Source: Candidatus Bathyarchaeia archaeon (lineage in GTDB: Archaea > Thermoproteota > Bathyarchaeia > Bathyarchaeales > Bathyarchaeaceae). Taken from it: a stretch of DNA of 64,000 nucleotides. This document shows positions 40,253 to 59,023 of this stretch, piece after piece. The position numbers and the translations under genes were made by a program. A model generated the notes under the pieces. That model made no database searches, was not told where the DNA came from, and worked only from the letters and a program-made list of their open reading frames with translations. The stretch is from positions 842-64,841 of the forward strand of contig DATETJ010000003.1 of assembly GCA_035283685.1 (NCBI GenBank), read 5' to 3'. The number at the start of each line of letters is the position of its first letter. The first letter of the stretch is position 1.

Positions 40253-41434
40253 ATGAGTGCTCAAGAGTTTCTGGATTACATTGCGAAAAGCAAGGCCAAG
40301 AACACTAACAAGTCCTATCGGAATGCTGTCAGAAAATTTGCAGAGTGGTATAAAGGCACGTACTCGGTTGAGCAGCTAAATGAGATTCTGCAAGAGAGAA
40401 AAGACTCAATGCAGGGCAAGGGTCCCCAAGAAAAACGAAGATTCGAAAGGCTAGTCGAGGAATGGCACAGAACACAGCTCAACAGCGGGGCCAGCATCAA
40501 CTCCGCAAGAAACCGCTACGTTGCTGTAACACAGTTTTTCAAGTTCTTTGATCTAGACCTGAACACAGCTGTTATCCCGAGCGAGGTAAAGAAAACCATG
40601 ATCTCAGAGAAAGATTATCCGCTTACGGTTGAAGACCTCAGGGCGATGCATAAAGTTGCTGACCTTCGGGGCAGAACCATTCTGCTTATGGCAAAAGATC
40701 TGGGACAGCGCCTTAGCGACTTCAAAATGATCAAGGTTGAACAGCTGCCGAACTTGGACTCTGAACCGCCAATTCCGTTCAGCATCGAAACGGGTAAAGA
40801 GCATGTTCAGACGAAGGGCTTCTTGTCCGCAGAGACCGTTCAAGCTCTAAAAACCTATCTCGAGACACTACGGAAGAGAAAGAAGCCTTCCCCGTTTCTT
40901 TGGCCGTCGAATGGAAAACACCCGCTTGATGAGGACAGCTTTGGAGTATGGCTGAAGAATTTGGCTGAAAAGGCTGGAATCAAGACCGGTAATCAGAAGT
41001 TGACTTTTCACTGTTTCAGACGTTTGCTCATGCGGGCCGCTATCGAAACAGGCGTTGGCTTAACAGCGGCCAAATTGATGGTTGGAAAAGCTGTTGAAAA
41101 AAGTGACGAAACATACATTGCGAAAGCTAGGCTGGATAAGGTATTCACAAAACTCAGCAAATACCTCAACGTAACGGGTACAGTCGAAGAGAGAAAACCA
41201 CTGCAAGACTTGATAGTTCAACAAGAGAAAGAAATATCGAGCCTCCGGAAACGTATCGAGGCAATTGTGGAGCAAATAAAGGAATACGAAGAGACCTTTG
41301 ATTCAGTTGTAAGAGAATTCGCAACTCTGATTTTGGTGCTTGCTGAACGACTTGGTGATGAAACAACGCTCCGAATGCTGCATGAGGCAAAAGAAAGGCT
41401 TGACCAGAAACTTGTGGAGAAAGTGCAAGAGTGA
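40253..41434 (+). CDS. tyrosine recombinase/integrase with a ~100-aa C-terminal coiled-coil extension
   Basis: N-terminal SAM-like domain (NTNKSYRNAVRKFAEWY). Catalytic pattern: Arg in DLGQRLSDF, HxxR in FHCFRRLL, and Tyr in SDETYIAKA. A heptad-rich tail follows (QEKEISSLRKRIEAIVEQIKEYEE...). Confidence 0.8.
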   Translation: MSAQEFLDYIAKSKAKNTNKSYRNAVRKFAEWYKGTYSVEQLNEILQERKDSMQGKGPQEKRRFERLVEEWHRTQLNSGASINSARNRYVAVTQFFKFFDLDLNTAVIPSEVKKTMISEKDYPLTVEDLRAMHKVADLRGRTILLMAKDLGQRLSDFKMIKVEQLPNLDSEPPIPFSIETGKEHVQTKGFLSAETVQALKTYLETLRKRKKPSPFLWPSNGKHPLDEDSFGVWLKNLAEKAGIKTGNQKLTFHCFRRLLMRAAIETGVGLTAAKLMVGKAVEKSDETYIAKARLDKVFTKLSKYLNVTGTVEERKPLQDLIVQQEKEISSLRKRIEAIVEQIKEYEETFDSVVREFATLILVLAERLGDETTLRMLHEAKERLDQKLVEKVQE

Positions 41435-41578
41435 TTTTGCCAATATGAAGCACGGCTACGAATAGTCCTGATAGAAGAGTACAGAATATTTGATGGCAAG
41501 CTTTATCGCCGCTAGCAATAGCGACGATGGTCGAGCTAAAAGAGAACTCGAAAATCCCTTCAAACTGCAGTATCTGGA

Positions 41579-42007
41579 GTGGGAGTGATTGGAAACGTGA
41601 CGCTTGAGATGACTTGCGAATGGTCGGAAAAGGGTGCCAGCGTCTTAGACTTGGATATGCGCTATTCAAATGTGGAATGGGGCGGCCTAGTCAAAGACTG
41701 CTACCAGCTGACACTCACCAGTTTTGGCGCCACAAAAGAGCGCATCAACCAGATTAAGCAACTCCAAGTCTACGATAATATAGTCTTGGGCAGCCCGTGT
41801 ATGCTACCGTTCAAAGACGAATGCTTTGATCTGGTCTTTGCTATGAACGCGGCTTTGCCATCTGACACAAAAGGCACATGGGCCATGATAAATGAGTGCA
41901 GGCGGGTTGCGATAGAAAAATACTATGCGCGGTCTCCATACCCATCGCTTGCAGTCATCGTCGGCTTCGTCAAAACAAGAAAATGCAGGATAATTTCAAT
42001 ATCATAG
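41579..42007 (+). pseudogene. possible SAM-methyltransferase remnant
   Basis: GTG-start ORF with LGSPCMLPFKDECFDLVFAMNA (post-motif II/III-like) but no intact GxGxG. The upstream frames are broken. Confidence 0.25.
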
Positions 42008-42533
42008 ACGAACGAGATGACGGTTAGGGACATGCATGGTATTGAGATGGGAGTGGCGAAGCCATCGCCACAACGTACAGGAAGATGAAGCTGCATGAAT
42101 TTCAGAGATTCACTAGATAGAGTTTTGGACAAATTGCTTTGTGGGAATTGCGGACCAGAATATGAAAGAATCGCAGGCCTATTCTGCCCTATGTGGTGCT
42201 ATCGGCGACGATTCAGAAATGAGATGTATTGGGCTCTTCATTTGAACGTGATTGTAGCGTTTCTCCTAAGATTCTGAATTCTGGGAGATGAACAAAGCTC
42301 TTCTTAGCTAGCTATGTTAATGCTAGCGCTCGTGCATGCGGTTCTCTGCTGGAGTCATCTAGCCGGAGTTACGAATGAAGGTCAAGTCTACTGTCGCAAA
42401 CACGGAGGCACGTGGATTCAAGGTCTGAAATGCTACAGTTGCCCAGATAATCAGCTTCGCAAGAAAGGAGGCGGTAAAGAGGTCCATTAGAGATGGTGCG
42501 GGCTCAGGGGTGGATTAGCTCGCGCTTAGCACA

Positions 42534-42542
42534 ACTTATAAG
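42534..42542 (+). promoter_or_regulatory. TATA box ACTTATAAG upstream of hsdR
   Basis: The same 9-mer as at 45334-45342. It lies about 30 nt upstream of ATG 42569. Confidence 0.5.
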
Positions 42543-42568
42543 ATCATAAGAGTTCTATCGTTTACTTA

Positions 42569-45307
42569 ATGTCAAACGAGGAATTCTCAGGTTCAATGGG
42601 CGAAAAACGCACCAGAGAAAAATACATTGATCCTGAGATATCGAAGAGAAAATGGATTCCAAAATACGTTGAAGAAGAAGTCAATTCCGTCAAGTCCGAT
42701 TTTGTCGACAAAAAACTTGTGTTCTATGATGGCCACCCTGAGAAAGGTGTTGACAGATTCATAGACTATGTATTGCTCGATGAAGATTATTCGGTTTTAG
42801 CCATCATCGAAGCAAAAGATTTTTCCAAAAATGAGGAAAAGGGACGAATTCAAGCTAGAACATACGCAAAAGACATTGAAAAACAAACCACTAAGAAAGT
42901 GCCTATTTTTCTTACGAATGGCAAAATCTGGCGTTTCATTGATGAAGATGGAATAGAGCGCAAGGTCAGTGGTGTCTTTAGTCAAGAGGATCTCAGGCGA
43001 AGAGGAGATCTCTATGGCAAAAAGAGAAATCCATCTGACGCAAAATTTGAATCACGGATAATTGATCGATCTAAGAACAGATACTTGGTTCAGAAGTTAA
43101 GTGAACACTTCTCAGAAGGACATAGAAAAGCTCTTGTTGAGATGGCCACGGGCACTGGGAAAACAAGAGTTGCGATGGCGATTATTGATCGCCTTATAAA
43201 TTCCAATATGGTTCGAAACGCTTTGTTCATTGCCGATCGAACTGCTCTTGTGAACCAGGCAGAATCAAGCGGATTTCAACAGTTTTTTACCGAGCCAGTT
43301 GTAGATCTTCGTAAGGGTTTTTCTACTACTGGGAGATTGTATGTTTCCACAGTGCAAACACTGATGAGTGGCAAGCCAAGGCTAGCTGAACAGTTTAGTC
43401 CTGGTTTTTTTGACATAATTGTTTTTGATGAAGCTCATAGATCCTATTATGACAAGAATAATTTCATTGACGAATATTTCGATGCCATCAAAATAGGACT
43501 TACTGCCACACCTAGAGAACACGAAACAAAAAACACTTACGACCTATTTGGGTGTGAGCAAGGTAAGCCAACAGTAGAGTATTCCTATGATGAAGCCATT
43601 ATCGACAAGATTCTAGTTCCGTACAAAGCGGAAATAATAGACACTGAGAGATTGTCTCTCGGCATCAAAGGCTCGACATTGACGGAAGCTTTGAAGGATC
43701 AACTCAGACGGCAGGAAGTCAATCCAGAGCAAGCCGAATATGCTGGTTCAGATTTTGATCGGGTGTTCATGGACGACAAGACCAATGAAGTGATAATTAG
43801 AGAATTTATGAATAGTTGTTACAAATCTGATGAAGGCAAGCCTTGTAAATCTATATTCTTTTGTGCGAGTCAGAGACACGCCCAACACATGAAAAGAATC
43901 TTTGGAATCATTGTTCCGAATCTCAGCAATGACGTTCAGGTTATTACGTCTGAAATGTATCGGGCAGACGATGAGGTAAAACGGTTTGGCTTAACATCTG
44001 AGCCAAGGATTGCTTTGTCTGTTGGCATGCTAGATACGGGCATAGATGTTCCAGAAGTGTGCAACCTAGTCTTCGTTAAGCCAGTTTTTTCCCATATCCG
44101 GTTCTGGCAAATGGTAGGAAGAGGAACAAGAAACCGAGAAGCCTGTAAGCATCCTATTTGGTTGCCGAATAGAGAGAAGAATGATTTTCTAATTCTTGAT
44201 TTCAAGATAGGAGGGCATTCTAATGTCTATTATCATCAGTTCGAAGAAACAAAAGAAAAATCCGCTGCTAAAGATGTTATTACTCGGATATTCGAAAACA
44301 GAGTGAAACTCTTACAAAAATCCCTTGATGAAGATCAAAAGAAAATCATCTCAAACAAGATTATAGCATCTATAGACGAGTTGGATAAAGAATCCTTCAT
44401 TCTGCGGGAGAAACTGCCAACACTTGAAAAAATAAAAGGAGAATCATTTAATCTCCAGAATTATGTCAATGAACTAATGAGAGAGATAGCACCTCTAATG
44501 ATCTTTAATCAGGGCAGGAATGCGAATATTTCCTCTTTCATACTTCAGACAGAAAAACTGTTTGGCTATGTTTTAGACAGAAAGAAAGACCTGATAGAAA
44601 ACGTCAGACACTATGTTCAGGAGATGTGCGAGAATATTCTCCGAAAAGATAATCTAACGGAAATAAGGAAAAACAGAGACATTATAATACGTGTACTGCA
44701 AGAGGATTTCTGGGAAGACCTAACATTCAATGACGTTGAGTTCTTAGTGGTACAAATCGCACCATTAATGAAATATTATGAACCAGAGCCAACGAAAATC
44801 GTCCAGGTGGATGCTCCTGACATTGTCTTGCTCAGAGAAAAATACCTAATGGAAATCAAGGAAGATGAAGAGTTGAAGAAATTCCTGAACGTAAATCCTA
44901 TTATCAGGAAGATTCGTGATGGTGAAGGAATAACGCCACCTGAATTGGCGGAATTGGAGTTCGAGCTGTCTTCATTGAGACCTGGTCTCACAGTTGATAA
45001 TGTTCAAAAGTATCAGAATATTGATTTTCTGTCGTTTCTGCATAAAATAATGGGTCTTACAGAGAAATCCGATCCAAAAGAACTAATCGAATATGAGTTT
45101 GACCAATATGTCCTTGCCAAAACAGAATACAATTCTAAGCAATTGGCATTTCTAGCCGTGTTGAAAAAGGTCTTTGCCAATAGAAAACGCATCGGACTCC
45201 CGGATCTGGCAAATCCACCTTTATCCAATGAGCGTCCTCTTGATTTTTTCAAGATAGAGGAATTGAAACTCATTATTGAAAAATGTAATCGAATCAAGAT
45301 GCGATAA
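42569..45307 (+). CDS. hsdR: Type I restriction enzyme R subunit (COG4096/EcoEI-like)
   Basis: N-terminal PD-(D/E)xK (IDYVLLDEDYSVLAIIEAKD). SF2 motifs MATGTGKTRVAM, FDEAHRS and LTATP. C-terminal EcoEI-R-like tail. Confidence 0.85.
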   Translation: MSNEEFSGSMGEKRTREKYIDPEISKRKWIPKYVEEEVNSVKSDFVDKKLVFYDGHPEKGVDRFIDYVLLDEDYSVLAIIEAKDFSKNEEKGRIQARTYAKDIEKQTTKKVPIFLTNGKIWRFIDEDGIERKVSGVFSQEDLRRRGDLYGKKRNPSDAKFESRIIDRSKNRYLVQKLSEHFSEGHRKALVEMATGTGKTRVAMAIIDRLINSNMVRNALFIADRTALVNQAESSGFQQFFTEPVVDLRKGFSTTGRLYVSTVQTLMSGKPRLAEQFSPGFFDIIVFDEAHRSYYDKNNFIDEYFDAIKIGLTATPREHETKNTYDLFGCEQGKPTVEYSYDEAIIDKILVPYKAEIIDTERLSLGIKGSTLTEALKDQLRRQEVNPEQAEYAGSDFDRVFMDDKTNEVIIREFMNSCYKSDEGKPCKSIFFCASQRHAQHMKRIFGIIVPNLSNDVQVITSEMYRADDEVKRFGLTSEPRIALSVGMLDTGIDVPEVCNLVFVKPVFSHIRFWQMVGRGTRNREACKHPIWLPNREKNDFLILDFKIGGHSNVYYHQFEETKEKSAAKDVITRIFENRVKLLQKSLDEDQKKIISNKIIASIDELDKESFILREKLPTLEKIKGESFNLQNYVNELMREIAPLMIFNQGRNANISSFILQTEKLFGYVLDRKKDLIENVRHYVQEMCENILRKDNLTEIRKNRDIIIRVLQEDFWEDLTFNDVEFLVVQIAPLMKYYEPEPTKIVQVDAPDIVLLREKYLMEIKEDEELKKFLNVNPIIRKIRDGEGITPPELAELEFELSSLRPGLTVDNVQKYQNIDFLSFLHKIMGLTEKSDPKELIEYEFDQYVLAKTEYNSKQLAFLAVLKKVFANRKRIGLPDLANPPLSNERPLDFFKIEELKLIIEKCNRIKMR

Positions 45308-45308
45308 T

Positions 45309-45330
45309 TATGTAAACCTTGGTTTACATA
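45309..45330. promoter_or_regulatory. perfect 10-bp inverted repeat (putative operator)
   Basis: TATGTAAACC-tt-GGTTTACATA, sitting 3 nt upstream of TATA ACTTATAAG (45334-45342) and about 36 nt upstream of the RHH gene ATG. Confidence 0.5.
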
Positions 45331-45365
45331 AATACTTATAAGTTGAGCTGCACTTAGGCTTACGC

Positions 45366-45743
45366 ATGGAATATCGAACAGTCTCTGCTAAACTTCCGAG
45401 TAATGAACTTACCTTATTCAGAGCACATTGTGAAAAGAAGGGGGTGTCTCCAGCTTACCTGATCAGGGAGTTAATCCTGAAAGAAATGAGAATCACAGTT
45501 CCACATGCGGTCGCAGGCAGAAACATAATCAATTACGATAGAAACAAAGATTCCTTTACATGGTCCGTTGAACTTGACACTGGAAAAACTGTCGAGGTTC
45601 TGAGAAACGTTTCACCAGTTTTTGTTGAAAATCTGAATGACATTATCACACTCGGCATGGGAGAAAGAACGTCTTTTCTTCGAAAGAAGAGAGAAGATTC
45701 TGTCCCTGTTCCAAGTAATATTCTAAGGAGAAAAAGACAATGA
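45366..45743 (+). CDS. ribbon-helix-helix (CopG/Arc-like) protein embedded in the R-M locus
   Basis: VSAKLPSNELTLFRAHCEKKGVSPAYLIRELILKEM follows the beta-alpha-alpha RHH pattern. Its stop overlaps the hsdS start (ATGA). Confidence 0.6.
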   Translation: MEYRTVSAKLPSNELTLFRAHCEKKGVSPAYLIRELILKEMRITVPHAVAGRNIINYDRNKDSFTWSVELDTGKTVEVLRNVSPVFVENLNDIITLGMGERTSFLRKKREDSVPVPSNILRRKRQ

Positions 45744-46930
45744 AACTGCCAAACGGGGGGCAAGAGGTAAAGATCCAAGAAATTGCAAGGGTTGATTCAG
45801 GTCAAGGAGCCCCACAAGGCGAAGAATGGTACGTTGGAAATGAAGTCTTCGTGAAAGCAGGTGATCTGAATTCTCTAACTGAAGGTAAATACGTGGGAGA
45901 GCACTGCAAAAGGGTGAACGATAACGCAGTTACCCAGTACAAGTTAAGAAAATATCCTAAGAACTCTATAGTATTTCCAAAGAGTGGAATGTCTGTTAAA
46001 ACTGACAATATTGCACTACTGAAATATGACTCATATGTAGTCAATCATCTTGCGATAATACAGGTGAACGGCAATGATGAAGATCTGGTAAAATATCTTT
46101 ACTATTCACTGAAAGAGGCCAAAATATCGAAACTATCCCTAAATGATAGCTACCCGTCAATTAGACTTAGCGACATAAAGAGATACAGGGTTGTTATTCC
46201 ACCTCATCCTCAATTGAGAAAAATGGTTGCAATTCTTGAAAGGGCAGATCAACTGAAACAATGGAGAAAGGAATCTGATAAGTTATCTGAGGATTATCCC
46301 AATAGTGTTTTCTTGGAGATGTTTGGAGATCCAAAGAACAATCCAAAACACTGGGATGTTATCAAGATTAACGATGCCATTGAATATTCCCAGTATGGGA
46401 CCTCAGTCAAATCTAATTCAGATGGAAGAGGTTATCCAGTTGTTGGAATGGGCAACATTACATATGATGGTCGTCTTGATCTTTCAAATCACTCTTATGT
46501 AGAACTACCAAGGGAAGAATTCGAGAAACTAAAACTCCACAAGGATGATGTAATTTTCAATAGGACAAATTCCACTGAACTAGTTGGCAAAACTGCATGT
46601 TGGGATATGGATCTTGACGCAGTCCTGGCGTCTTATCTTGTGAAGCTGAAACTAAGAGAGAACATAAACCCTGTATTCTTTACACACTTGCTGAATACCC
46701 GATTCTTCAAGCAACTATTCTCTATACGCTGTAGAAAGGCCGTAAACCAGTCAAATATCAGTCCAACTCTCTTGAAGAAATTCAGTATGTATTTGCCCCC
46801 TGTTGAGCTTCAGAACAAGTTTGCTTCCACAGCCAACCAAGTTGAACAAATGAGAGCTCATCAAAGAAAATCACAAAAACAGATTGATAACCTATTCAAT
46901 GCTTTGGTGCAAAAAGTGTTTAGAGGTTAG
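45740..46930 (+). CDS. hsdS: Type I R-M specificity subunit
   Basis: Two target-recognition halves are separated by conserved helical spacers (LRKMVAILERADQLKQ...; LQNKFASTANQVEQMRAHQRKSQKQIDNLFNALVQKVF). Confidence 0.85.
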   Translation: MKLPNGGQEVKIQEIARVDSGQGAPQGEEWYVGNEVFVKAGDLNSLTEGKYVGEHCKRVNDNAVTQYKLRKYPKNSIVFPKSGMSVKTDNIALLKYDSYVVNHLAIIQVNGNDEDLVKYLYYSLKEAKISKLSLNDSYPSIRLSDIKRYRVVIPPHPQLRKMVAILERADQLKQWRKESDKLSEDYPNSVFLEMFGDPKNNPKHWDVIKINDAIEYSQYGTSVKSNSDGRGYPVVGMGNITYDGRLDLSNHSYVELPREEFEKLKLHKDDVIFNRTNSTELVGKTACWDMDLDAVLASYLVKLKLRENINPVFFTHLLNTRFFKQLFSIRCRKAVNQSNISPTLLKKFSMYLPPVELQNKFASTANQVEQMRAHQRKSQKQIDNLFNALVQKVFRG

Positions 46931-46935
46931 TTAGC

Positions 46936-48423
46936 ATGCTAGATACAGAACTGAAATCGAAAATAAACCAATTATGGGATAAATTTTGGAGCGGAGGAAT
47001 ATCGGATCCTCTTGTTGCCATTACTCAGATGTCGTATCTGATTTTCATGAGGAGACTGGAAGATGAAGATATCGGCAGGGAACAAAATGCTCAACTAAGC
47101 GGAGAGCATTATGAATCCGTCTTCAAGGTTAATGATGATTGCAGGTGGTCGGAATGGACGAATCTTCCTTCTAACCAAATCTTAGACCATGTTAGAGACA
47201 AAGTGTTTCCATTCCTTAGAACACTTGGTGGAGAAGACTCCCTATATGCTCAATATATGAAACATGCTGTGTTCACTATCCCAACGCCTTCCCTTCTTAT
47301 TGAAGCTGTGAAAATAATCAATGATATGCATATCAAGGAACAAAACAGGGATGCAAAAGGAGATCTATACGAATATCTACTTTCAGAATTGAAAACCGCC
47401 GGAAAAAACGGGCAGTTCAGAACACCGAGACACATAATAAAGATGATGGTTTCCCTAGTAGATCCAGAGATCGGCGATAGTATTTGCGATCCTGCTTGTG
47501 GAACTGCGGGTTTCTTGATTGTTGCTTATGAACATATCCTGAGAAATAACACTTCAAAGGAATTCATCAAAACAGATGAGTTAGGAAACGAATACGGGTC
47601 TAAAGGAGATAAACTGGAAAAAAGACAGTGGAATCTGCTGTTAGAACATACTTTCTATGGATATGATTTTGACACGACAATGCTAAGAATATCACTTATG
47701 AACATGATGATGCATGGAATTGAAAGACCTAACATAAGAGAACAGAACACGCTTTCCAGTAGATATAACCAAGAAAAGAATCGCTATGACGTAGTTTTGG
47801 CGAATCCACCATTCAAGGGAAGTATCAACGAATCGGAGATTAGTAGAGAATTTTCAATCACAACTAAGAAGACAGAGATTCTTTTCCTTGAACTGATGTA
47901 CAACATCCTCTCAGGTGGCGGAAGATGTGCAGTTATTGTGCCAGACGGAGTGTTATTCGGTAATTCTAGAGCACACAAAAAGATTAAGGGAAAATTACTT
48001 GAGGAATGTCGCATGGATGCAGTCATATCAATGCCTTCAGGCGTATTCAAACCCTATGCAGGGGTATCTACGGCGGTTCTAGTCTTTACAAAAGGAGAAC
48101 CCACTAAGAGAGTGTGGTTCTATGATATGAAAGCTGACGGCTACAGTCTTGATGATAAGAGAACTTTCCTAGACGGAAAGGGCGATATTCCCGATATATT
48201 GAGTAAATTCAGCAAAAGAGATCTCGAGCGATTCGAAGATAGAAAAGCCAGCTGCTTCTTTGTTCCCATTGAAGAAATAAAGGAAAATGGTTATGACCTA
48301 AGCGTTTCAAGATACAGAGAACTTGAGTACGAAGAAGTTGTCTACGAAAACCCTGAAGTAATCAAACAGAAAATTCTAGAGCTGGAAAACAAGATTGTTG
48401 AAACCTTACGAACCATTTCTTGA
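46936..48423 (+). CDS. hsdM: Type I R-M N6-adenine DNA methyltransferase subunit
   Basis: FRTPRHI, DPACGTAGFL (motif I) and LANPPFKG (motif IV). Confidence 0.9.
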   Translation: MLDTELKSKINQLWDKFWSGGISDPLVAITQMSYLIFMRRLEDEDIGREQNAQLSGEHYESVFKVNDDCRWSEWTNLPSNQILDHVRDKVFPFLRTLGGEDSLYAQYMKHAVFTIPTPSLLIEAVKIINDMHIKEQNRDAKGDLYEYLLSELKTAGKNGQFRTPRHIIKMMVSLVDPEIGDSICDPACGTAGFLIVAYEHILRNNTSKEFIKTDELGNEYGSKGDKLEKRQWNLLLEHTFYGYDFDTTMLRISLMNMMMHGIERPNIREQNTLSSRYNQEKNRYDVVLANPPFKGSINESEISREFSITTKKTEILFLELMYNILSGGGRCAVIVPDGVLFGNSRAHKKIKGKLLEECRMDAVISMPSGVFKPYAGVSTAVLVFTKGEPTKRVWFYDMKADGYSLDDKRTFLDGKGDIPDILSKFSKRDLERFEDRKASCFFVPIEEIKENGYDLSVSRYRELEYEEVVYENPEVIKQKILELENKIVETLRTIS

Positions 48424-48623
48424 GCAGTCTCGGGCGCATTTCCCATTGACCTTATGATTTAAGGAATAAGCACTTTCTTGTTTGTGGCTTGGTCCTGCTG
48501 TTACGCCTGTTGGCTTCATCGAAGGCTCGATTTGCCCAGTCACCCCAGCTTTCACTATTTCCTGGCAAAGATTCTCGAATTGCTGATTTTGTCAAGTCTT
48601 TCGACCTGGATTATTGAAAGCAA

Positions 48624-49346
48624 TCATATATCTCTGACATGTTTAAAATCTATACAATTTTTATGATAGTAACTATTTATGGTCGACTTTATTGCGGGAG
48701 AACTTGTCAAAATATGAACTGAATCAGAAGTGCAGAATATCGTACTATCATACCCAGTTGCCCATAAAACTGCATCAGCAACAATTTGTCTATCGTCCTC
48801 GTCTTCGATGCAGACAAGCGAGTCAATAAAGCCTTGATCTTTTGATATGGGTATAAGAGGTTTCTGCGTTTTTGTCTCCAAGACAGCACCTATTTTGGAT
48901 TCTACTTCTCTTCTGGTTGCACGATATTCACTTACAATAACTTCTTCATTTCGTGTTATCACGATTTCAAGGAACTGTTTAATGAAAATCCCTTGGTTTT
49001 CATTATACCCTTGAAACATGGCTTCACGGAATTTTCTAAGGTCTTTTATTTTGTTCCTGCTTAGCACAATGTTCAAGTCTCTGCCAAATTCGGACATAAA
49101 GCTCTTGAAATTCTCAATTTCTGAAATAACACTTTCGCTTGTGTGCCTCATGTGAGATGCATTGAAAATGCGAACGCAATCATTATGAAAAAAATCAAAG
49201 TGCACACCATAATTGATATAGACGCATGTGTCAAGAAAGCAAATCCTACTTGCAGGGTTTTTTGTAGGATTTCCAGACATTCGAAATTGTCCCCAAAAAG
49301 TCTTCTTCTTTCCCGTAGACTGTTCTGAAAAATTGCGACCTTTCAT
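48624..49346 (-). CDS. PIN-like nuclease domain protein (putative toxin)
   Basis: Acidic quartet pattern: CFLDTCVYI, SESVISEIE, DEDDRQIVADAVLWA and IFCTSDSVHIL. An alternative start at 49280 gives MSGNPTK. Confidence 0.5.
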   Translation of the reverse strand: MKGRNFSEQSTGKKKTFWGQFRMSGNPTKNPASRICFLDTCVYINYGVHFDFFHNDCVRIFNASHMRHTSESVISEIENFKSFMSEFGRDLNIVLSRNKIKDLRKFREAMFQGYNENQGIFIKQFLEIVITRNEEVIVSEYRATRREVESKIGAVLETKTQKPLIPISKDQGFIDSLVCIEDEDDRQIVADAVLWATGYDSTIFCTSDSVHILTSSPAIKSTINSYYHKNCIDFKHVRDI

Positions 49347-50367
49347 GAGGCGTTAGCAGCAACCCATTTTTTGCGAGCGTCTCATACAAGCTATCCAAGC
49401 AATTGCTAATCCATGAATCCGCATTTGAAAGAATAGCCTCTTGTTTTTTTCTTACTTTATCTGCGCATACGCCTGTTAAGGTTTTCAATGAAATCTTAAG
49501 AGCAATGGGTTTCCAGACTGCTTTTTCATACATGTCCTTCAAGAGCTTCAAGCAATTCAAAAACCATGCTCTCTCAAGATCCACTTTAACCAGATAATCC
49601 TCTAACAAATCGATATATCGATTAGTATAATCATAAAAACATGAAAAATCTGACGAATCAGCAATTTCAAGAACTAACCTAGAAAGGTTTTTTGCGAAGT
49701 GTCTGTAATGGCTAAATTCATTTGTTTCTAGACTGAATTTCAGAAGTGTCTGTTGAATAATGCCTTTTGTTTTGGGTTCAAATTTCTTGACTAACTCGAA
49801 ATTTCTTTCTATTGCGAGGTTGTTGTAGTAGAGCGGCTTATACTTTTCAGGTGCTCTTGTTCGGTAGAATTCCTCAAGAAAGGTGTTGAGCTTTGTATAA
49901 AAGATCTTTCTAACAGTTTCATCCATGATTCTCGAATATTTCGATTGTACGGGAGCGAATAATTTCTCTGCGTTCTTAATTTGGTCGCAAGTTGGTTCTG
50001 ATGAGAAGGTCATCTCATTTATTGGGATTGTAGTATCTGCGTTATGAACATACCCACCATAGAGATACCAGCTTCTTGTTAGGGGTATATCAAGTTCCTC
50101 AGCAACAATGAAAATTATTTTTTGCAGTTTCACTCTATTTTGAGAAAAATCTTGCTGAGAACTTGTATGTAAAATCCTCAAAATATCCCTCAGGATCATT
50201 TTAATTATAGCTGCCTCATCCTGAGGTTCTATTTTCAAAGCTGCCACCAAAATTCTTACTTGACTTATATGGATACTATATAAAAGAGTTTTCTGAAGTG
50301 CAAATACGTCTCTGGGCAAAGAGCAAAACCATATCTGAGACCTTGATGTTGCGATGATAAAGTACAA
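49246..50367 (-). CDS. hypothetical protein with a Panacea/DUF4065-like N-terminal region (putative antitoxin/sensor)
   Basis: RVKLQKIIFIVAEELDIPLTRSWYLYGGYVH resembles the KLQKLLY...GP core of SocA/Panacea domains. The remaining ~250 aa are unassigned and the start is uncertain. Confidence 0.4.
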   Translation of the reverse strand: MYFIIATSRSQIWFCSLPRDVFALQKTLLYSIHISQVRILVAALKIEPQDEAAIIKMILRDILRILHTSSQQDFSQNRVKLQKIIFIVAEELDIPLTRSWYLYGGYVHNADTTIPINEMTFSSEPTCDQIKNAEKLFAPVQSKYSRIMDETVRKIFYTKLNTFLEEFYRTRAPEKYKPLYYNNLAIERNFELVKKFEPKTKGIIQQTLLKFSLETNEFSHYRHFAKNLSRLVLEIADSSDFSCFYDYTNRYIDLLEDYLVKVDLERAWFLNCLKLLKDMYEKAVWKPIALKISLKTLTGVCADKVRKKQEAILSNADSWISNCLDSLYETLAKNGLLLTPHERSQFFRTVYGKEEDFLGTISNVWKSYKKPCK

Positions 50368-50564
50368 AGAAGGAAAATTGATTCTTCATTTTGTCAAGAG
50401 ATGGAAGAAGCGACCTGAGTGCAATACTGAGTAGCTTCCATGTGACTACTGGCTCATTATGTAGGCTAAGTCCACTGAAGCACGCGTAACTGAAACAATA
50501 GTACGCGCTTGACGAACCTGCCCTCGGAAGCCTCGGTCGGCGCGGGCGACGTGCATCGTTGCGT

Positions 50565-50768
50565 TTATCCTCTGTGAGCAGAGCCACGTTGATCCGTGCC
50601 TCTTTCTACGATTTTCACCCCAAAATCCGGTTCTGACGTTGGAGCGTTATTGACGATTGTCTTGGAAATGACTCCGCCACAGTGCGGACAAAAGCCCTTG
50701 GATGCTGGTGGGCAGTTTGGGTACGGAATGCTATTCCCGCACTTGGGACAATTCATTGATCTTGTCAC
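50565..50768 (-). CDS. zinc-ribbon protein
   Basis: CPKCGNSIPYPNC...CPHCGG. Confidence 0.45.
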   Translation of the reverse strand: MTRSMNCPKCGNSIPYPNCPPASKGFCPHCGGVISKTIVNNAPTSEPDFGVKIVERGTDQRGSAHRG

Positions 50769-50938
50769 CTCCTCACTTCAATCAAATCAGTTGTCTGAGC
50801 ATTTAAGCCTTTTTTAGAGTTATTTCACCAAAATAAAGCATATTTGTTAATAAAATTTAACAACAATGGAAAATTAAGCCGCGTTCGACTCTTAAGCCTT
50901 AAATTCCAAAAATAACAAATATTCCTTGGTGTCTGGAT

Positions 50939-51493
50939 GTGAAACCGAAAAATATTGCTGCGCTGTTCGCGGTGAGTCTTTCACGAAAAACGGGTTCGGT
51001 TTCAAGAGAGCTGTGGCCAGTCAGACTCATGCCGGGAATAAAGGGCGACGTCAGAATAGAGCCGAAGAACGGCGCCCGAGGCACGAGAAAGCACCAAGAC
51101 GGCTTGAAAGCGCGAACCAAAGTCATCTATGTTCAGGATAGAAAAGCAGGACTAAACGCGATCATGAAAAGTGCGCTCACTCACTATGGACAGACAAGTA
51201 GACTCGTTCTAGGAGCCCAGTTAATTGTCGAAGGCAAGACAGTTCAAACCTGGCTTCAGCCATGGACCAGTGATTTCGTGAAGAATTTCAGTGCATTAGA
51301 GAAAACCACAGCACAATTGTCAATGCTTAGAAATAATGGGGGCTCAAGATCGCAGCTTGCCTTTTTTGAAAAACTCCAGGGAATGTACGACGTCGATCTC
51401 TCGATGAAAACCGCTGTCAAGACCCGAGCCACCTACGCCATGATGCACGATGAATTTAAGAACTTTGCACGCGGCTTTGACGTCTGGCTTTAG
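50939..51493 (+). CDS. hypothetical protein
   Basis: 184-aa track ORF with a GTG start. The real start may be ATG at about 51029 or 51163. No family recognised. Confidence 0.35.
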   Translation: MKPKNIAALFAVSLSRKTGSVSRELWPVRLMPGIKGDVRIEPKNGARGTRKHQDGLKARTKVIYVQDRKAGLNAIMKSALTHYGQTSRLVLGAQLIVEGKTVQTWLQPWTSDFVKNFSALEKTTAQLSMLRNNGGSRSQLAFFEKLQGMYDVDLSMKTAVKTRATYAMMHDEFKNFARGFDVWL

Positions 51494-51550
51494 ATTCTCT
51501 TTTTCTCAAAGACCCTTACTACGAGGCTAGCTCCGTAGTTACTGCTGACG

Positions 51551-52900
51551 ATGGTCTTAAAATCTCTGCACTCCTTATTAGTGCGTAGCGGACGTCCGTT
51601 GGCGAGTGGATTCATGACAGTTGTTGATGAGCGAACTCAAAAGAAACTCCAAGAAATACTTGAAGCCATAGATAAGCGCAAAGAGACTTTCGAGAGTGCT
51701 ATCATAGGGCTAGCTCTGTCCAAAAACAAGGAAAATGAATGGCGAGTATGCTTCGGAATAATAGATTTTCAAAGAAAAGGCGAGACTCCGATACACGAGA
51801 CAAAATATGACTATGGGGAGTTCGTCCTCATAAGGAAGACGGAAAAGATACAAGCTGCTCTTGACCTTGCTAGCTCGATCTTCGAGAAGCAAACACTGAA
51901 GTTTGGCGACTATCCAGAGATTCCTTTAAAAGCTTCCATGGGCGAAGTGAGGTTTCTTTCAAGCCGTACCCGATATGGCCGATTTTCAAGCGAATGGCCG
52001 ATGCTCTATGCCTACGCTCGCATAGATGATAGTGCAAAGGGAGCAATGCCTTCTGATTCCTTGTCGAAATTAGGGTTACCTTTATTTCCAAGCGGTGTGG
52101 AGGCAGTAGACTCACTCCTAGAGTTGAACCTTCCAGAAGACTGGCACACCATAGAAAGCGAAATCGAGTTTCGAGTACCAGATTACCGAGCGCGTATAAG
52201 GTATTTGCGACTCGCCGGGAAGAAAATAACTCTGGAAGTAGAGACTGGAAGTATCGCTCAGACCGACTTGCGAGCAAAGTTCTACTGTAAGGGCATAGAC
52301 CGAAGCTATACTTCAGATGACATCCCCATAGAAAACGGACAAGCTGTATTCACGGCAGATGAAGAACCCTTTCTCGTTGAGGCTCACATTCTCTCAGCCC
52401 AAGAGGGAGATAGCATAGATGGCAAGAAGTTCGACTACAGATATCCGTCAAGGGAAGAACAGGTAGTAATAGAGGATAGCGAGGAACGACTTCTTGACAT
52501 GATCAGCAGAGGAGAAAACGAACACGTAGAGTTCAAGAAAGAACTCGACTCCAGAGAGTTCTTGGAAACAGTAGCAGCATTTGCCAACACGTATGGTGGA
52601 TCCATTTTCCTTGGAGTTGATGACAATTGCCGGATCTGCGGTTTCAAGGAAGACGCTGAAGACAAGATTGTGGACATGATAGCTGATAGTTGTGATCCTT
52701 CGATCGATGTGCAGATTCACCAAGAAGTTCTACACGAAATACCCGTCACTATCGTGGAGATTCCTGAGGGTACAAACAAGCCCTACGTTTTGAACAACAG
52801 GGGAATATTCATTAGAAGAGGAGCTTCGGACAGACAGATTAAGAGAACCGAGTTGGACGATGTCTACGCGAAGAAGCAACAGCGACCTTCGTCTTGGTGA
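51551..52900 (+). CDS. protein with a C-terminal AlbA_2 (Schlafen-type) domain and an unassigned ~300-aa N-terminal region
   Basis: GENEHVEFKKELDS...VAAFANTYGGSIFLGVDDNCRICG...PVTIVEIPEGTNKPYVL is the AlbA_2 signature. Confidence 0.6.
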   Translation: MVLKSLHSLLVRSGRPLASGFMTVVDERTQKKLQEILEAIDKRKETFESAIIGLALSKNKENEWRVCFGIIDFQRKGETPIHETKYDYGEFVLIRKTEKIQAALDLASSIFEKQTLKFGDYPEIPLKASMGEVRFLSSRTRYGRFSSEWPMLYAYARIDDSAKGAMPSDSLSKLGLPLFPSGVEAVDSLLELNLPEDWHTIESEIEFRVPDYRARIRYLRLAGKKITLEVETGSIAQTDLRAKFYCKGIDRSYTSDDIPIENGQAVFTADEEPFLVEAHILSAQEGDSIDGKKFDYRYPSREEQVVIEDSEERLLDMISRGENEHVEFKKELDSREFLETVAAFANTYGGSIFLGVDDNCRICGFKEDAEDKIVDMIADSCDPSIDVQIHQEVLHEIPVTIVEIPEGTNKPYVLNNRGIFIRRGASDRQIKRTELDDVYAKKQQRPSSW

Positions 52901-53236
52901 AAATGGGTCAAAACCTAGGCTGAGGACGGGAGAAAAGCGTTCCTTAAAGGATCAAGAAGTAGCTTCAAGGCGAGCTTAAAGGCTCCATTGCTACCTTTAA
53001 AAGGGACTTGCTAGGGAGCGAAAAGCAGCACAAAGAGGCTTTCATTTTTGCAATGAACGCAGCAAATCGTGGCGTTTTAAAATGAACTCGGCAATTGTGT
53101 AAGCCCCATGGACGTCTTGGCTGAAGGCTTTGGTTTTTGTTATAACCAAAGCAAAAAATGGAAGCTCATAGCACAATTTTTGTCATGGAGTTGCTAACCA
53201 TATCGTCATTAATTTGTTTGACCATATTCCATTTAC

Positions 53237-53599
53237 ATGGAATCCATGGAATCGGAGTTTAAGCTCTTCGAATTGAATGTTCAGAAGGTCGGCACGATTT
53301 ACTTCCCATCGCGTGTCCGGCGCGCTTTTGGCTGCAAGGTCAACTGTTTGACGAATGGTTCTGTGGCTGTGATTTTTTCTCAGGACTTGGAACAGGGCGA
53401 AGTTATTTCAAGCATTGAGGTAATTTTGGCAAATCTTCGACTGATGAAGAGGAAAAGTCAAACACAGAAGATGCTTGAAGGGGAGATTTGGAACTTGTTC
53501 AACGAATATAACATGGTAGCGAAAGCGGAAGACCTGTCACGATTGATTTTAACTCTAAACGAGACTTCAAAAGAAAAGAGAGGGCTAACTAAAACTTGA
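53237..53599 (+). CDS. AbrB/SpoVT-like DNA-binding protein
   Basis: VGTIYFPSRVRRAFGCKVNCLTNGSVAVIF is a swapped-hairpin-like motif. Confidence 0.4.
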   Translation: MESMESEFKLFELNVQKVGTIYFPSRVRRAFGCKVNCLTNGSVAVIFSQDLEQGEVISSIEVILANLRLMKRKSQTQKMLEGEIWNLFNEYNMVAKAEDLSRLILTLNETSKEKRGLTKT

Positions 53600-53735
53600 C
53601 AGAAAAAATGGGCCGCCCGCTGGCGCCCACAACAGACGACAACCCTCCCGTTCTCAAGAGAGCTTTTAGGGGTCTGCGGTCTTCTCTCTGTTCTTTCTCC
53701 AAAAAAGATTTTCGGTTAACCTGAAGGAGAAGACC

Positions 53736-53987
53736 ATGACTAGCCTGCACGAACTTCATTTCGGAGATTGGCGCCGGTTCCCGAAACATTTTGAGGCTCA
53801 CTTAAGTCACCCCAGGTTTGGCGTTGGCACAGCGTTTGCAGCGTACTGGACATTTGCCGACCTGGTTCCATGCCTCAAAAGAGAGGTCCAAAACAACGGT
53901 GGCAAACTCGAGCTCGAGGGCTGGACCATTAGATTTGGAAATCCACCGATGTTCATCCACAAAATTCGGTACGAGGCTAGGAGGTAA
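53736..53987 (+). CDS. hypothetical protein (first gene of the replication operon)
   Basis: 83-aa ORF. AGGAGG lies just before the downstream GTG. Confidence 0.4.
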   Translation: MTSLHELHFGDWRRFPKHFEAHLSHPRFGVGTAFAAYWTFADLVPCLKREVQNNGGKLELEGWTIRFGNPPMFIHKIRYEARR

Positions 53988-53991
53988 AGAG

Positions 53992-54495
53992 GTGAGTCGA
54001 AACGCAGCCGGTGACAAGAAAGACGCAAAAACGCCTCAAGTTGACGTTTCGAAGCTATCAGATTTTGAGATTTCAGTGTTAATTATCGACAGAGACACAG
54101 CCCAGTTCAGGATGAATGCGATTGATGAGTTGCTCGCTAAGGTAGGAGAGGCTAAGGGCTTCACGGAAGCCGCAAAGAAGGAGCTCAATGCGTTGTACAA
54201 AGGTAGCAGGTTGCTCGCAAGGGTTGTTGAAGAATCGAATAGGCTTACCATCCTTCCTGTACAGACATTACAAATCAAAGTCGACGTTCAACCGATCAAG
54301 AATTTTCTAGAACCGAGAATTCTTCAGCCGCTCAAACAAAAGCACGGCATAAACTATCGCCTTGAAGCAAAGGAGGGCTTCCTTTATGCCATTGTCCTTG
54401 AGGGTCAAGTTGATGCCAAAATGAAAGATGAACTTACAGCTCCCGTTTTGTGGGCACTTGAAAAGGCCAGCGAGAAAACCACGCAAAAACAGTGA
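53992..54495 (+). CDS. hypothetical protein
   Basis: The in-frame GTG at 53992 is preceded by AGGAGGTAAAGAG. The track start at 53818 overlaps the previous ORF. The stop overlaps the replicase start (GTGA). Confidence 0.45.
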   Translation: MSRNAAGDKKDAKTPQVDVSKLSDFEISVLIIDRDTAQFRMNAIDELLAKVGEAKGFTEAAKKELNALYKGSRLLARVVEESNRLTILPVQTLQIKVDVQPIKNFLEPRILQPLKQKHGINYRLEAKEGFLYAIVLEGQVDAKMKDELTAPVLWALEKASEKTTQKQ

Positions 54496-57257
54496 GGATT
54501 GCCATGAACACAGAGCGGCAGGCTGAACGAGATATCAAGGGGGTTGCCAGTGAGTATTGGCGACTCGGCTTGAACATTGTGCCGGTCAAAGGAAAAACGC
54601 CTCTAATCAAGTGGGCAGAGCTTCAGTCTTCTCAGCAGTCAAGTGATGATTTCATTAATCTGCCATGGAATCAAGCTGACGGCTTTGCTCTAATAGGTGG
54701 CGCCAAGAGGATTGACGGACTGTACCTGGGTGCCATTGATTACGACGTCAAGAATGTTTCTGAGAATGCGAAGGAGTTGGGAAAGAAGTTCCTGAAAGAC
54801 CTTCTAGCCACAAGGATTGAGAAGACGCCTTCAGGTGGCGAGCACTGGGTTTTCTATTCGAGAAAGCAGCCCGGCACAGTGAGCAGTTTTCACGATTCAC
54901 TAGCTCTCGAGCTTTTAGGGAAGGACAAGCTCATCGTCATGGCTCCCAGCAATGGTTATACTCGTATGAACGACAATGAGCCGACCGTTTTAGAGGACCT
55001 TGAGAGCACGTTTTACGACGGGTTGTACCACATCGGTGTTGGGAAATCGCGAGAGGCTACAAAAACCGCAGCACCTAGGAAAAGGCGCCGGAAAACCAAG
55101 GCGCGCATGTGCTGTGAAGTGGCTCTAGAGAAGGATCGCCGCATTTCTCATTTGATGCGACTGGCCATTGCCAGCGAATACAAGCGGCTCGGTTTGTCTG
55201 AGGTCGATGTTGTTGAGCTTTTTGGACATCAGGCTGACTTTGACCGGGACAAGTGCTTGACGCAAGTGGCAAGCGCGAATCCTGCCAGGACCGCTTCATG
55301 CGTTTCTATCAAGAGTTGGGGTTATTGTCTCCCTGAATGCCCCAAGACGCCCGGCGTTGGAGGTGGCACGAAGGGCGACGAAGAGGGCAGAGAAAGCCAA
55401 GCAGACGCTATGATCAAACTTGCCCAAGCCGAAAGTGTCTCACTGTTTCACGATGAGAGGCGAGAGCCCTACATCCGGATCCGAAAGGGCGAGGCGCTGG
55501 TCACCATGAGGCTTCGAAGCAAGGAGACGAAGACCTGGCTGAGTAGCCTTCTTTGGCGAGACAGAGAGAAAGCGCCCAGCGGCGAGGCATTATCATCAGC
55601 TCTCAACGTCCTTGAAGCTTTGGCAAACGATGGGGAGAAGCATCAGCTTTACAACCGAGTAGCACCAGGAGAAGACGGAAGCATATGGCTAGATCTCTGC
55701 GATGATCAATGGCGTGCAATCCACGTCACTAGGGCAGGCTGGGAGGTCGTGAATCACCCGCCTATCCTCTTCCGCCGCTACAGCCACCAGCAACCAATCC
55801 CCATTCCAATACACGGATCGCTGAAGCATATAGGAAGCATCTTGGACTATGCCAACATCAAGCATTTAGGAGACCAGCTTCTCTATGTCGTGGCTGTCAT
55901 CACAAATCTTATTCCAGGCATCCCGCATGTGGTGATAATTCTTTTCGGACCCCAAGGCAGCGGCAAGACGTGGGCGTTACGGATCATTCGGCTCCTCATC
56001 GACCCTAGCCAACTCGATCTTCTCTCGCTTCCAACGCGGTATGTTGAGCTTGTCCAGAACCTGGACCATAGCTGGTGTTCGTTTTTCGATAACATCGGGA
56101 GCCTTCCACCATGGCAGAGCAACGTGTTCTGTCGAGCCGTCACCGGAGGAGGAGTCAGCAAACGCCAACTCTACACCGATGACGATGACATAATCTACCA
56201 GTACCACCGTTGTGTTGGGCTAACCGACATCAATATCGCCGCGGAGCGAGGAGACCTCCTTCAGCGCAGCGTTCTACTAGGCCTCGAGGCTATACCCAAA
56301 GACCATCGCAAGACGGAGAGCGAGCTCAGAGCCAGGTTCGCCCAAGATCAACCGAAGATTCTTGCAGGTATGTTAGACGTGTTGGTTAAGGCTTTGAATC
56401 TTTATCCCACGGTCAAACTTGAATCACTCAATAGAATGGCGGACTACACTATCTGGGGACACGCGATAACCCAGGCGTTGGGTCTCAAGCCGGAGTGCTT
56501 CATCAATGCATACGAAGAGAATATCAACGCTCAAAATCTGGAAGCCGTTCGCGCCAACCCAATATCTGATGCCCTCATTAGTCTGATGGAGACGAACAAG
56601 CTGACGGGTTGGAGCGGAACCGTTTCCCAACTTTTCAGCGAGCTCGAGGAGAAGGCAAAAGATCTCAAGATTAGCACTCGACAGAAAGCTTGGCCCAAGA
56701 AACCGCACGTGCTGTCGCGAATTCTGAATGAGTTGGCCCCGTCCCTGTCCGCAGTGGGCCTGGAGATTGAAAGAGATAGAACTGGGAGCGCCAGATTAAT
56801 TCACATAAATGCCGTACCAGGCGTCACAAGCGTCGCAAGACAGTCCGACTGGGGCAAGGGCAGTGACTTGAAGGCTTACTTGAGTGACGCTAGTGACGCT
56901 TCGGCAGGTAGTTTTGAAAGTTTATCTGGCAATCAGGTAGAGATGCCAACTCAGCCCAAAAACAAAGAACCGGAAAAACTCGCACAAACACCGTCACAAG
57001 CGTCACAAGCGTCATCGGTCCGAGAATTCTTCGCTTGGCTGCAATCAGAGTTTCAGAAAGGCAACAACCCGATTCTGAGCCTCGTGCCGCTGGACCCAGT
57101 TCAAAAGGGGACTTGCCCTCTTTGCCAGAAGCATGACGTCAATTTGGTTTGGCAGCTTCAGTTTGTTGACGGAAGCCGCTATGATGGACTCTGCGTCGAC
57201 TGTGGGGGCCGAATTCAAGATCTGGTCAGAGAATTCGAGGAGAGAAGTAATGCATGA
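54492..57257 (+). CDS. bifunctional primase-polymerase / SF3-type helicase replicase (pRN1 ORF904-like)
   Basis: Prim-pol N-domain (NIVPVKGKTPLIKWAELQ, AIDYDVK, PSGGEHWVFYS), Walker A ILFGPQGSGKTW and C-terminal Cys pairs (CPLCQKH...CVDCGG). 921 aa. Confidence 0.8.
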   Translation: MRIAMNTERQAERDIKGVASEYWRLGLNIVPVKGKTPLIKWAELQSSQQSSDDFINLPWNQADGFALIGGAKRIDGLYLGAIDYDVKNVSENAKELGKKFLKDLLATRIEKTPSGGEHWVFYSRKQPGTVSSFHDSLALELLGKDKLIVMAPSNGYTRMNDNEPTVLEDLESTFYDGLYHIGVGKSREATKTAAPRKRRRKTKARMCCEVALEKDRRISHLMRLAIASEYKRLGLSEVDVVELFGHQADFDRDKCLTQVASANPARTASCVSIKSWGYCLPECPKTPGVGGGTKGDEEGRESQADAMIKLAQAESVSLFHDERREPYIRIRKGEALVTMRLRSKETKTWLSSLLWRDREKAPSGEALSSALNVLEALANDGEKHQLYNRVAPGEDGSIWLDLCDDQWRAIHVTRAGWEVVNHPPILFRRYSHQQPIPIPIHGSLKHIGSILDYANIKHLGDQLLYVVAVITNLIPGIPHVVIILFGPQGSGKTWALRIIRLLIDPSQLDLLSLPTRYVELVQNLDHSWCSFFDNIGSLPPWQSNVFCRAVTGGGVSKRQLYTDDDDIIYQYHRCVGLTDINIAAERGDLLQRSVLLGLEAIPKDHRKTESELRARFAQDQPKILAGMLDVLVKALNLYPTVKLESLNRMADYTIWGHAITQALGLKPECFINAYEENINAQNLEAVRANPISDALISLMETNKLTGWSGTVSQLFSELEEKAKDLKISTRQKAWPKKPHVLSRILNELAPSLSAVGLEIERDRTGSARLIHINAVPGVTSVARQSDWGKGSDLKAYLSDASDASAGSFESLSGNQVEMPTQPKNKEPEKLAQTPSQASQASSVREFFAWLQSEFQKGNNPILSLVPLDPVQKGTCPLCQKHDVNLVWQLQFVDGSRYDGLCVDCGGRIQDLVREFEERSNA

Positions 57258-57496
57258 ATGAACGAACCCGAAGGATGTTGGAAACTGAGAAACCTAGAAC
57301 CTATGGAAAGTGCCCAATATGCAGCACAGACCTGCCAAGCGGGGACGTATTTCGCACAGCAGTTCTGCAAGGCACACTCATCATTTCCAATGGCAGAATA
57401 TTCCACGCTGCCTGTCTTGAGCATGAAATGGGTCCTGACAGAATGAGAGAGCTACGTCGACGCTTGAGTCTACCTGAACAGGATGTGGGAAAATGA
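57254..57496 (+). CDS. small zinc-binding protein
   Basis: CPICSTD...HAACLEHE. Its ATG overlaps the replicase stop (ATGA). Confidence 0.45.
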   Translation: MNERTRRMLETEKPRTYGKCPICSTDLPSGDVFRTAVLQGTLIISNGRIFHAACLEHEMGPDRMRELRRRLSLPEQDVGK

Positions 57497-57786
57497 AGGT
57501 CAAAAGCAAAGCAGAGATGGCCGCAGATCTCAACCGATTTCTGCTAGTCGAAAACGTGTCCTGGGAGAAATTGCCGAAAAAGGACCTAGCCGAGCAGCTG
57601 AATCGTTTCCTCTTGATCCAAGTGTCTTGGGAACGGTTGTCGCAAAAAGACTTGATCAAGGTCTGCTCGGCGTTTCAGCGGCTTCGGCAAGACGTTGACG
57701 AAATTCTCGCGCTACTGGATCAGGCGCCCTTTTCGACTGAGAGTCCTCAAAAAACAATAGAGAAGATGGTTCAATATGTTATTTAA
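57493..57786 (+). CDS. hypothetical protein with an internal ~21-aa duplication
   Basis: AADLNRFLLVENVSWEKLPKKDL is repeated as AEQLNRFLLIQVSWERLSQKDL. It has an ATGA overlap with the previous gene. Confidence 0.45.
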   Translation: MKVKSKAEMAADLNRFLLVENVSWEKLPKKDLAEQLNRFLLIQVSWERLSQKDLIKVCSAFQRLRQDVDEILALLDQAPFSTESPQKTIEKMVQYVI

Positions 57787-58045
57787 TCGCGTACATACGT
57801 CAAAAGCAGGGTCTCTAGACAACCGATTTGAGACCAAAAGCTCAGCTCTAGCGAGATTAAAAATCTTGACTCTGCATGAACCAAGGCTTGAGAAGGTTCA
57901 TTCATGTTTTTTTTATAGTCATGGAGATGGTAAAACTTGCCAGAAAGTCAGAAAGTAGAGGAGTGTATGAATTCATACACTTTGTCTGAGGAACACGCTA
58001 AACGACTCCTTAAACCCAACGGCAGTAGAAAAAATTGGAGTCTCG

Positions 58046-58270: not shown

Positions 58271-58540
58271 ATTTGTTGAGAGTGTCTGAATAAATGCAGA
58301 CGTCACAAGTTGCCCTAAGAAAACAGAAGGAAAAAAGCGATATCCTCGCTGCCCTGGAGCTCAAAGAAGGGCTCAAAGGCTCAGTGGTTTGGGATCGAGT
58401 AAACTGTGGAAAGCATTGCTGCTAGAGATATTGGGAATTCAATGACACTTGGAAACCATTAGACTTTCAAAAGACATTTCTTTCTACTGGTATAGCAAAC
58501 CATAAACCCATTGAAAGAGTAAGTCTGAAAAGGAGTCAGA

Positions 58541-58990: not shown

Positions 58991-59023
58991 GACTTGAGAC
59001 TGATATTTGAGAAAGTGATATAG

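Follow-up and report, generated by a model that had tools for sequence, protein, structure and literature searches.

The stretch of DNA analysed here, called the window below, is a 64,000-nt segment of a Candidatus Bathyarchaeia genome (assembly GCA_035283685.1, contig DATETJ010000003.1, positions 842 to 64,841), in which two overlapping minus-strand genes lie beside a type I restriction-modification (R-M) operon. An earlier note, made from the sequence alone, had described at this place a toxin-antitoxin or abortive-infection cassette of three genes, encoding a zinc-ribbon protein, a 373-aa protein reminiscent of the Panacea (SocA/DUF4065) domain and a 240-aa protein with the acidic pattern of PIN nucleases. 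Three co-oriented minus-strand open reading frames (ORFs) are indeed found at 50565-50768, 49246-50367 and 48624-49346, respectively, and the strings quoted for them (FLDTCV, SEIE, DEDDRQIVADA, CTSDS and KLQKIIFIVAEELDIPLTRSWYLYGGYV) all occur in the translations. Both large proteins are annotated in the genome as hypothetical. Their homologues, at 28-47% identity, carry PF26400/DUF8098 (for the upstream protein) and PF26507/DUF8169 (for the distal one), recently created Pfam families that are not mentioned in the literature we searched, and we use these names for the two proteins. Only five to six clusters per protein were found among 5.8 billion clustered proteins, all of them carrying PF26400 or PF26507. 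With homologues, Pfam families and kept synteny, the DUF8098 and DUF8169 ORFs are real genes.

The starts of the homologues show that the 373-aa and 240-aa models, although they describe real ORFs, were over-extended. DUF8098 homologues begin at MKIEPQDE (M-x-I-x-P-Q-D-E), and the NCBI call for the identical protein has 330 aa (HKZ93681.1); we therefore place the DUF8098 start at the TTG at 50238 (gene at 49246..50238, minus strand, 330 aa). DUF8169 homologues begin at MSGNPT, corresponding to the ATG at 49280 and a protein of 218 aa (gene at 48624..49280, minus strand). With these trimmed starts the two genes overlap by 35 nt (49246..49280, minus strand, holding the DUF8098 stop and the DUF8169 start) rather than 100 nt, and the zinc-ribbon ORF lies ~326 nt upstream of the pair instead of the ~200 nt given before. 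A TATA-like TTTTATATAG occurs ~45 nt before the DUF8098 TTG start and GGTGG 6 nt before it; read from the sequence, these are putative promoter and ribosome-binding signals of the pair (50239..50300, minus strand).

To collect related loci, we looked up exact proteins and scanned genomes and metagenomes for patterns. At every one of the 15 loci with room for both genes (two more loci are truncated), DUF8169 comes immediately after DUF8098 on the same strand, which bears out the association proposed for the two large genes. The ends of the two genes overlap or abut at the related loci, and where start and stop were read the overlap is 8-35 nt, the tight two-gene operon arrangement of type II toxin-antitoxin systems; given this overlap of the DUF8098 stop with the PIN gene start, coupled translation in fixed proportion is probable. 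The loci that bear organism names belong to Bathyarchaeia and Methanosuratincola, the others being unassigned metagenome contigs. A relative of the PIN family is also present in a Methanomethylicaceae metagenome-assembled genome.

The junction itself is highly conserved. In an alignment of seven loci from the subfamily closest to the window, a 21-nt block, AATGTCTGGAAATCCTACAAA, hardly varies in its nucleotides; it is kept at the junctions of the window and of loci L001, L002, L006 and L008-L010, though the proteins are only 36-47% identical. The block codes for ..NVWKSYK in one frame and for MSGNPTK in the other. Such near-invariance of nucleotides is as expected for a dual-coding coupling site, and we read the block, which is dual coding, as probably a site of translational coupling. 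L002 has ACG in place of the ATG, and its PIN gene has a start that lies upstream of this point. A palindrome search found no palindromic operator in the region or its promoter, and an Rfam scan of the region was also empty. The spacer between the pair and the zinc-ribbon ORF (50239-50564) likewise gave no Rfam match and no significant palindrome; it contains a locally GC-rich stretch, CGTCGCCCGCGCCGACCGAGGCTTCCGAGGGCAGG, and a 103-aa ORF (50276-50587) that is probably spurious.

On the strength of its modelled fold and its sequence, the distal protein, DUF8169, is a VapC-group nuclease of PIN fold whose acidic site is intact and whose activity is predicted; we make this assignment because structure, conserved residues, Pfam PIN models and solved relatives converge. 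The AlphaFold2 (AF2) model (predicted local distance difference test score, pLDDT, 81.7; predicted template modelling score, pTM, 0.78) shows strands and helices in the order b1-a-a-b2-a...b3-a-b4-a-b5, which is the PIN order within an alpha/beta/alpha fold. The best Foldseek matches in the PDB were VapC2 (3zvk), PAE0151 (2fe1), AF0591 (1o4w) and VapC20 (5wz4), with the Rickettsia VapC2 reaching the highest probability (0.93); VapC/PIN proteins took ranks 1-3, 5, 9 and 18, at target-normalised template modelling (TM) scores of 0.48-0.56. As the earlier note had recognised from the letters alone, the acidic pattern is split by a helical insert, which the model places after strand 2 (helices 49-74, 78-88, 94-107 and 112-135).

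An exhaustive profile search returned 65 DUF8169 relatives at E<=1e-3, nearly all of them 190-235 aa long; a repetitive protein of 1152 aa among the profile matches (P0018) was rejected as an unrelated repeat artefact. An alignment of 56 of these relatives shows no variation at E54 and D163, and conservation of 90% or more at D17, D169 and D186. D17 lies in FLDT and E54 in TSxxVxxE; D163 is among the first residues of helix 161-174, and D186 is part of a T-x-D that follows strand 180-184. These positions fit the published definition of the PIN site, an aspartate after S1 and acidic residues after S2, at the N-terminus of H4 and after S4 (PMC5499597), and D17, E54, D163 and D186, plus D169, are the predicted catalytic residues. 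The family profile aligns the same five acidic motifs, co-linearly, with those of M. tuberculosis VapC26 (5x3t).

At the level of the family, the link to PIN also appears in Pfam. The consensus of the 56 members passes the gathering threshold of PF01850 (29.3 bits, cutoff 23.6) and, at 22.5 bits, the PIN_4 cutoff of 21.9; its alignment to PIN_12/PF16289 spans that model end to end, from position 1 to 170 of 172. Twelve individual members are weakly matched by PIN-clan models, and no rival family matches more than one. No useful match came from searching PDB sequences with narrow family profiles, and hhalign of the family against a single Shigella VapC aligned the first motif and no more, a comparison now superseded by that of the consensus with Pfam.

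The upstream protein, DUF8098, is presumed to be the partner of the PIN protein, acting as inhibitor or sensor. Its AF2 model (pLDDT 79.5, pTM 0.79) is all-alpha apart from a small beta-hairpin (residues 57-67); searched with Foldseek against the PDB and BFVD, a collection of predicted viral protein structures, it yielded noise only. DUF8098 had no match when the window proteins were scanned against Pfam, PADLOC, PHROGs and NCBIfam. Its conserved C-terminal tail, ER..FF...YG..KEF, which is modelled at low confidence, is by analogy with the tails of VapB proteins a candidate neutralising element.

The pair keeps company with R-M genes, as the earlier note had supposed from its position in the window, where it is convergent with the type I R-M operon hsdR-(RHH-like)-hsdS-hsdM (42569-48423). 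Methyltransferase (MTase) or R-M genes lie within ~5 kb of the pair in ~6 of 10 distinct contexts by simple count; they occur in the window and at L002, L005, L008, L009 and L030-32, and there are none at L001, L010, L011/12 and L029. At L002 the pair adjoins an MmeI-type R-M system and DUF3800, at L030-32 a type III R-M system and at L005 an N6_N4 MTase, while MTase-Mrr fusions and an integrase are near it at L008 and L009, with an Eco57I-type enzyme in the same set. The genes flanking the pair are unrelated from one locus to another, and recurrence beside defence genes in such unrelated contexts is the behaviour of a defence-island element. Because the types of R-M system and their orientations vary by locus, we take the pair to be an autonomous, horizontally mobile unit that tends toward defence islands, not an accessory of any one system.

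Among characterised systems, VapBC (Shigella VapC, 3TND; Rickettsia VapBC2, 3ZVK; M. tuberculosis VapC26, 5X3T) has in common with DUF8169 the PIN fold and the four canonical acidic residues. VapBC and the DUF8098-DUF8169 pair are alike in being bicistronic with the non-nuclease gene first and the genes overlapping, and in their patchy, mobile distribution. They differ in the partner, which in VapBC is a DNA-binding antitoxin of 70-90 aa and here an all-helical protein of 330 aa with no recognised fold; in the PIN protein, which here has 218 aa with the long helical insert after strand 2; and in range, the pair being restricted to Thermoproteota archaea in current data. Among PIN-like families of the VapC group, DUF4935 (PIN_12, PF16289; Matelska et al. 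2017, PMC5499597) resembles DUF8169 in its PIN core, its conserved acidic residues and the long helical insert that comes after S2. Yet the DUF8169 consensus scores only 20.6 bits on PF16289, below the cutoff of 32, and DUF4935 proteins are bacterial, run to ~350 aa, an additional C-terminal region included, and are described as usually monocistronic, whereas DUF8169 is archaeal, has 218 aa and is always paired with DUF8098.

We conclude that DUF8098-DUF8169 is most likely an archaeal toxin-antitoxin or defence module. Our preferred reading, to which we assign a probability of roughly 0.6, is that the two proteins would be co-translated and that DUF8098 would bind and silence the PIN nuclease. 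The analysis shows the pair and how it is conserved, the PIN fold with its active-site residues, and the tie to R-M and mobile islands; the interaction, the inhibition, the toxicity, the RNA target and the trigger are here inferred from the biology of VapBC and PanA-PanT. On that analogy, DUF8098 would hold the PIN protein inactive in the manner of an antitoxin or a sensor; loss of the partner, or a cue such as virus infection, would free the nuclease, which would then cleave cellular or viral RNA and bring about growth arrest, by which the island might be stabilised or an infection aborted. What survives of the cassette first proposed is a conserved PIN pair whose architecture (330 + 218 aa) is atypical for VapBC; its three-gene make-up does not survive.

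Several observations weigh against the preferred reading. The Foldseek E-values of the PIN matches are weak (0.09-1.5), since about half of the query is insert, and the DUF8169 protein of the window has by itself no match to the Pfam PIN models. DUF8098, at 330 aa, is far larger than a classical VapB and is not a small antitoxin of the AbrB, RHH, HTH or Phd kind, and no DNA-binding or known antitoxin domain was recognised in it by the Pfam, NCBIfam, PHROGs and PADLOC scans; PADLOC, a set of defence-system protein models, recognises neither DUF8098 nor DUF8169. The pair was not found on the viral contigs searched, and at L001, L010 and L011/12 it sits among housekeeping or signalling genes (TFIIB, histidine-kinase) with no R-M genes nearby.

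Some of the same facts could be accommodated by the main rival, a non-toxic nuclease of two subunits, in which DUF8098 would target or scaffold the PIN protein to invading DNA or RNA or to an R-M-linked substrate. This would suit a DUF8098 that exceeds the nuclease in size and has a firm fold, unlike typical labile antitoxins, as well as the strict co-occurrence and coupling of the two genes, the recurrence of MTase or R-M genes beside them, and the failure of any PADLOC model, those for toxin-antitoxin and abortive-infection systems included, to match either protein. The two-subunit reading is hard to reconcile, however, with flanking R-M systems that differ in type (I, IIG, III, MTase-Mrr) and are variable in orientation (convergent in the window), so that the pair has no fixed functional partner, or with the loci that have no R-M at all; moreover, stand-alone bicistronic PIN proteins of the VapC group are overwhelmingly toxins (PMC5499597), and we regard the two-subunit nuclease as unlikely. 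Highly improbable, in our view, is the cassette of three genes, in which the upstream zinc-ribbon protein would serve as regulator or third component. The 67-aa ORF in question (50565..50768, minus strand; 63 aa from an internal ATG) is co-oriented with the pair, carries two CxxC knuckles (CPKC...CPHC), and has a good Shine-Dalgarno-like motif, GGAGGTGA, 8 nt before the internal ATG; its Pfam zinc-ribbon matches are weak and below threshold, and it could well encode a genuine zinc-ribbon protein of small size. Some PanA antitoxins, too, have Zn-binding domains (PMC10440598). But tblastn found no relative of the ORF at any of 17 related loci (co-occurrence in 0 of the 15 complete ones), at other loci the pair is preceded by unrelated genes, which often lie on the opposite strand, and in the window ~326 nt with the pair's own promoter-like signals intervene. 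The ORF is also uncalled in the JGI annotation and, at both starts tried, uncalled in every assembly of the region and absent from the protein collection. Its one apparent match on a viral contig was spurious, lying antisense in a tape-measure gene rich in GC. The zinc-ribbon ORF is thus not part of the module, and synteny largely refutes the three-gene reading.

Under a further alternative, the pair would be a PanA-PanT system, with the N-terminal ~140 residues of DUF8098 a highly diverged Panacea domain, the remaining ~190 aa an accessory C-terminus, and DUF8169 a PIN toxin. The gene order is that of PanA-PanT (PMC8832971, PMC10440598), a Panacea-like gene upstream of, and overlapping, a toxin-like gene; DUF8098 has a KLQK...PL...W.YG-type motif followed by a beta-hairpin; and the idea of a large multidomain 'antitoxin' as sensor could be applied to it. 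For comparison we used 10 PanA proteins from phage genomes, all of which pass PF13274, and 34 more from viral contigs, 44 altogether. When the N-terminal 150 residues of DUF8098 were submitted to hhalign, the succession helix / KLQK helix / PL / W.YG(G/P)(Y/V)V was aligned every time, with P = 0.008 and a probability of 4.8% against the 10 PanA and P = 0.024-0.053 and 1-2% against the 44; one of 200 column shuffles reached the real score of the former comparison. These P-values are optimistic because the hypothesis was picked after the motif had been seen. The AF2 hairpin falls at PLTRS...GYV, where published PanA models put beta1 and beta2 (beta2 adjoins the YGPV motif; PMC10440598), and the ~93 residues from KLQK to RAPE.YK equal the span from KLQK to TH..PW in PanA. 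Against this, the alignment requires three gaps and covers only the ~45-residue KLQK...PL...W.YG motif, and DUF8098 lacks the Panacea invariants GPV and TH..PW and is twice the typical PanA size. A match to the hidden Markov model (HMM) PF13274 is what was used to define PanA (PMC8832971); the seven DUF8098 members searched gave none at E<=10, and the family consensus gave none at E<=1. The family scores ~0-2 bits on the 44-sequence Panacea HMM with filters off, hhalign gives probabilities of 0.5-1% for full-length DUF8098 against Panacea and 1-5% for its N-terminal part against PanA, and Foldseek of DUF8098 against BFVD, which is expected to include phage PanA models, found nothing; the PDB holds no Panacea structure. 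The resemblance on which the earlier note had remarked is thus reproducible, motif-sized and statistically weak; the motif recurs, but PF13274 matches no DUF8098 member searched and homology is not demonstrated. We treat remote homology to Panacea as a tentative possibility, and an outright PanA-PanT system as doubtful to the same degree. Rather improbable is the more specific proposal of a Thermoproteota-specific anti-virus or abortive-infection system, in which a large sensor with an extremely diverged Panacea-like N-terminus would restrain a DUF4935-type PIN RNase and release it on infection.

The surroundings of the pair in the window (40253-59515) look like an integrated mobile or defence island. 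Beside the type I R-M operon, this segment contains genes for a tyrosine integrase (40253-41434), a Schlafen/AlbA_2 protein (51551-52900), a primase-like protein of 921 aa that weakly resembles PriL and phage primases (54492-57257), and a TIR protein of the ThsB type (59024-59515); GC content is 0.385 at 44-50 kb, the region of the pair, versus ~0.48 elsewhere in the window. No convincing att-like direct repeats bound the island, and no adjacent tRNA was found. Within the R-M operon, a plus-strand ORF of 125 aa (45366-45743; 99 aa in the NCBI version) lies between hsdR and hsdS and overlaps the hsdS start; from a weak RHH_1 match (E 0.016) it could be a controller-like regulator. Another plus-strand ORF, of 184 aa (50939-51493; 154 aa in the JGI version), lies divergent from the pair between the zinc-ribbon ORF and the Schlafen/AlbA_2 gene and weakly matches a PHROG 'transcriptional regulator' (E 0.0013). 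The 149-aa protein before the TIR gene matches phrog_19896 (E 9e-27), a PHROG without assigned function. Elsewhere in the window ARAGORN calls a single 'tRNA-Tyr' (10965-11056, minus strand; anticodon ATA) of unusual length, 92 nt, which may be an archaeal tRNA that contains an intron, or else a miscall. At L008 a ParB_N-HTH_ParB-DUF488 fusion of 354 aa, followed by a Cys-rich 243-aa protein without known family, lies upstream of the pair (2389-4187), and these genes may constitute a further system carried by an island.

Knowledge of archaeal toxin-antitoxin and defence systems is sparse, above all in uncultured lineages, Bathyarchaeia among them. Pfam DUF8169 can now be given a fold and a probable catalytic site, its strict coupling to DUF8098 is shown, and the pair is placed in R-M and mobile islands. 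If DUF8098 is an inhibitor or sensor, it would represent a new class of proteins controlling PIN nucleases. If its N-terminus is truly Panacea-like, this hyperpromiscuous domain would reach beyond what HMM-based surveys detect, and, should the proposed anti-virus or abortive-infection system be real, the Panacea 'sensor' concept would extend to archaea and to PIN effectors.

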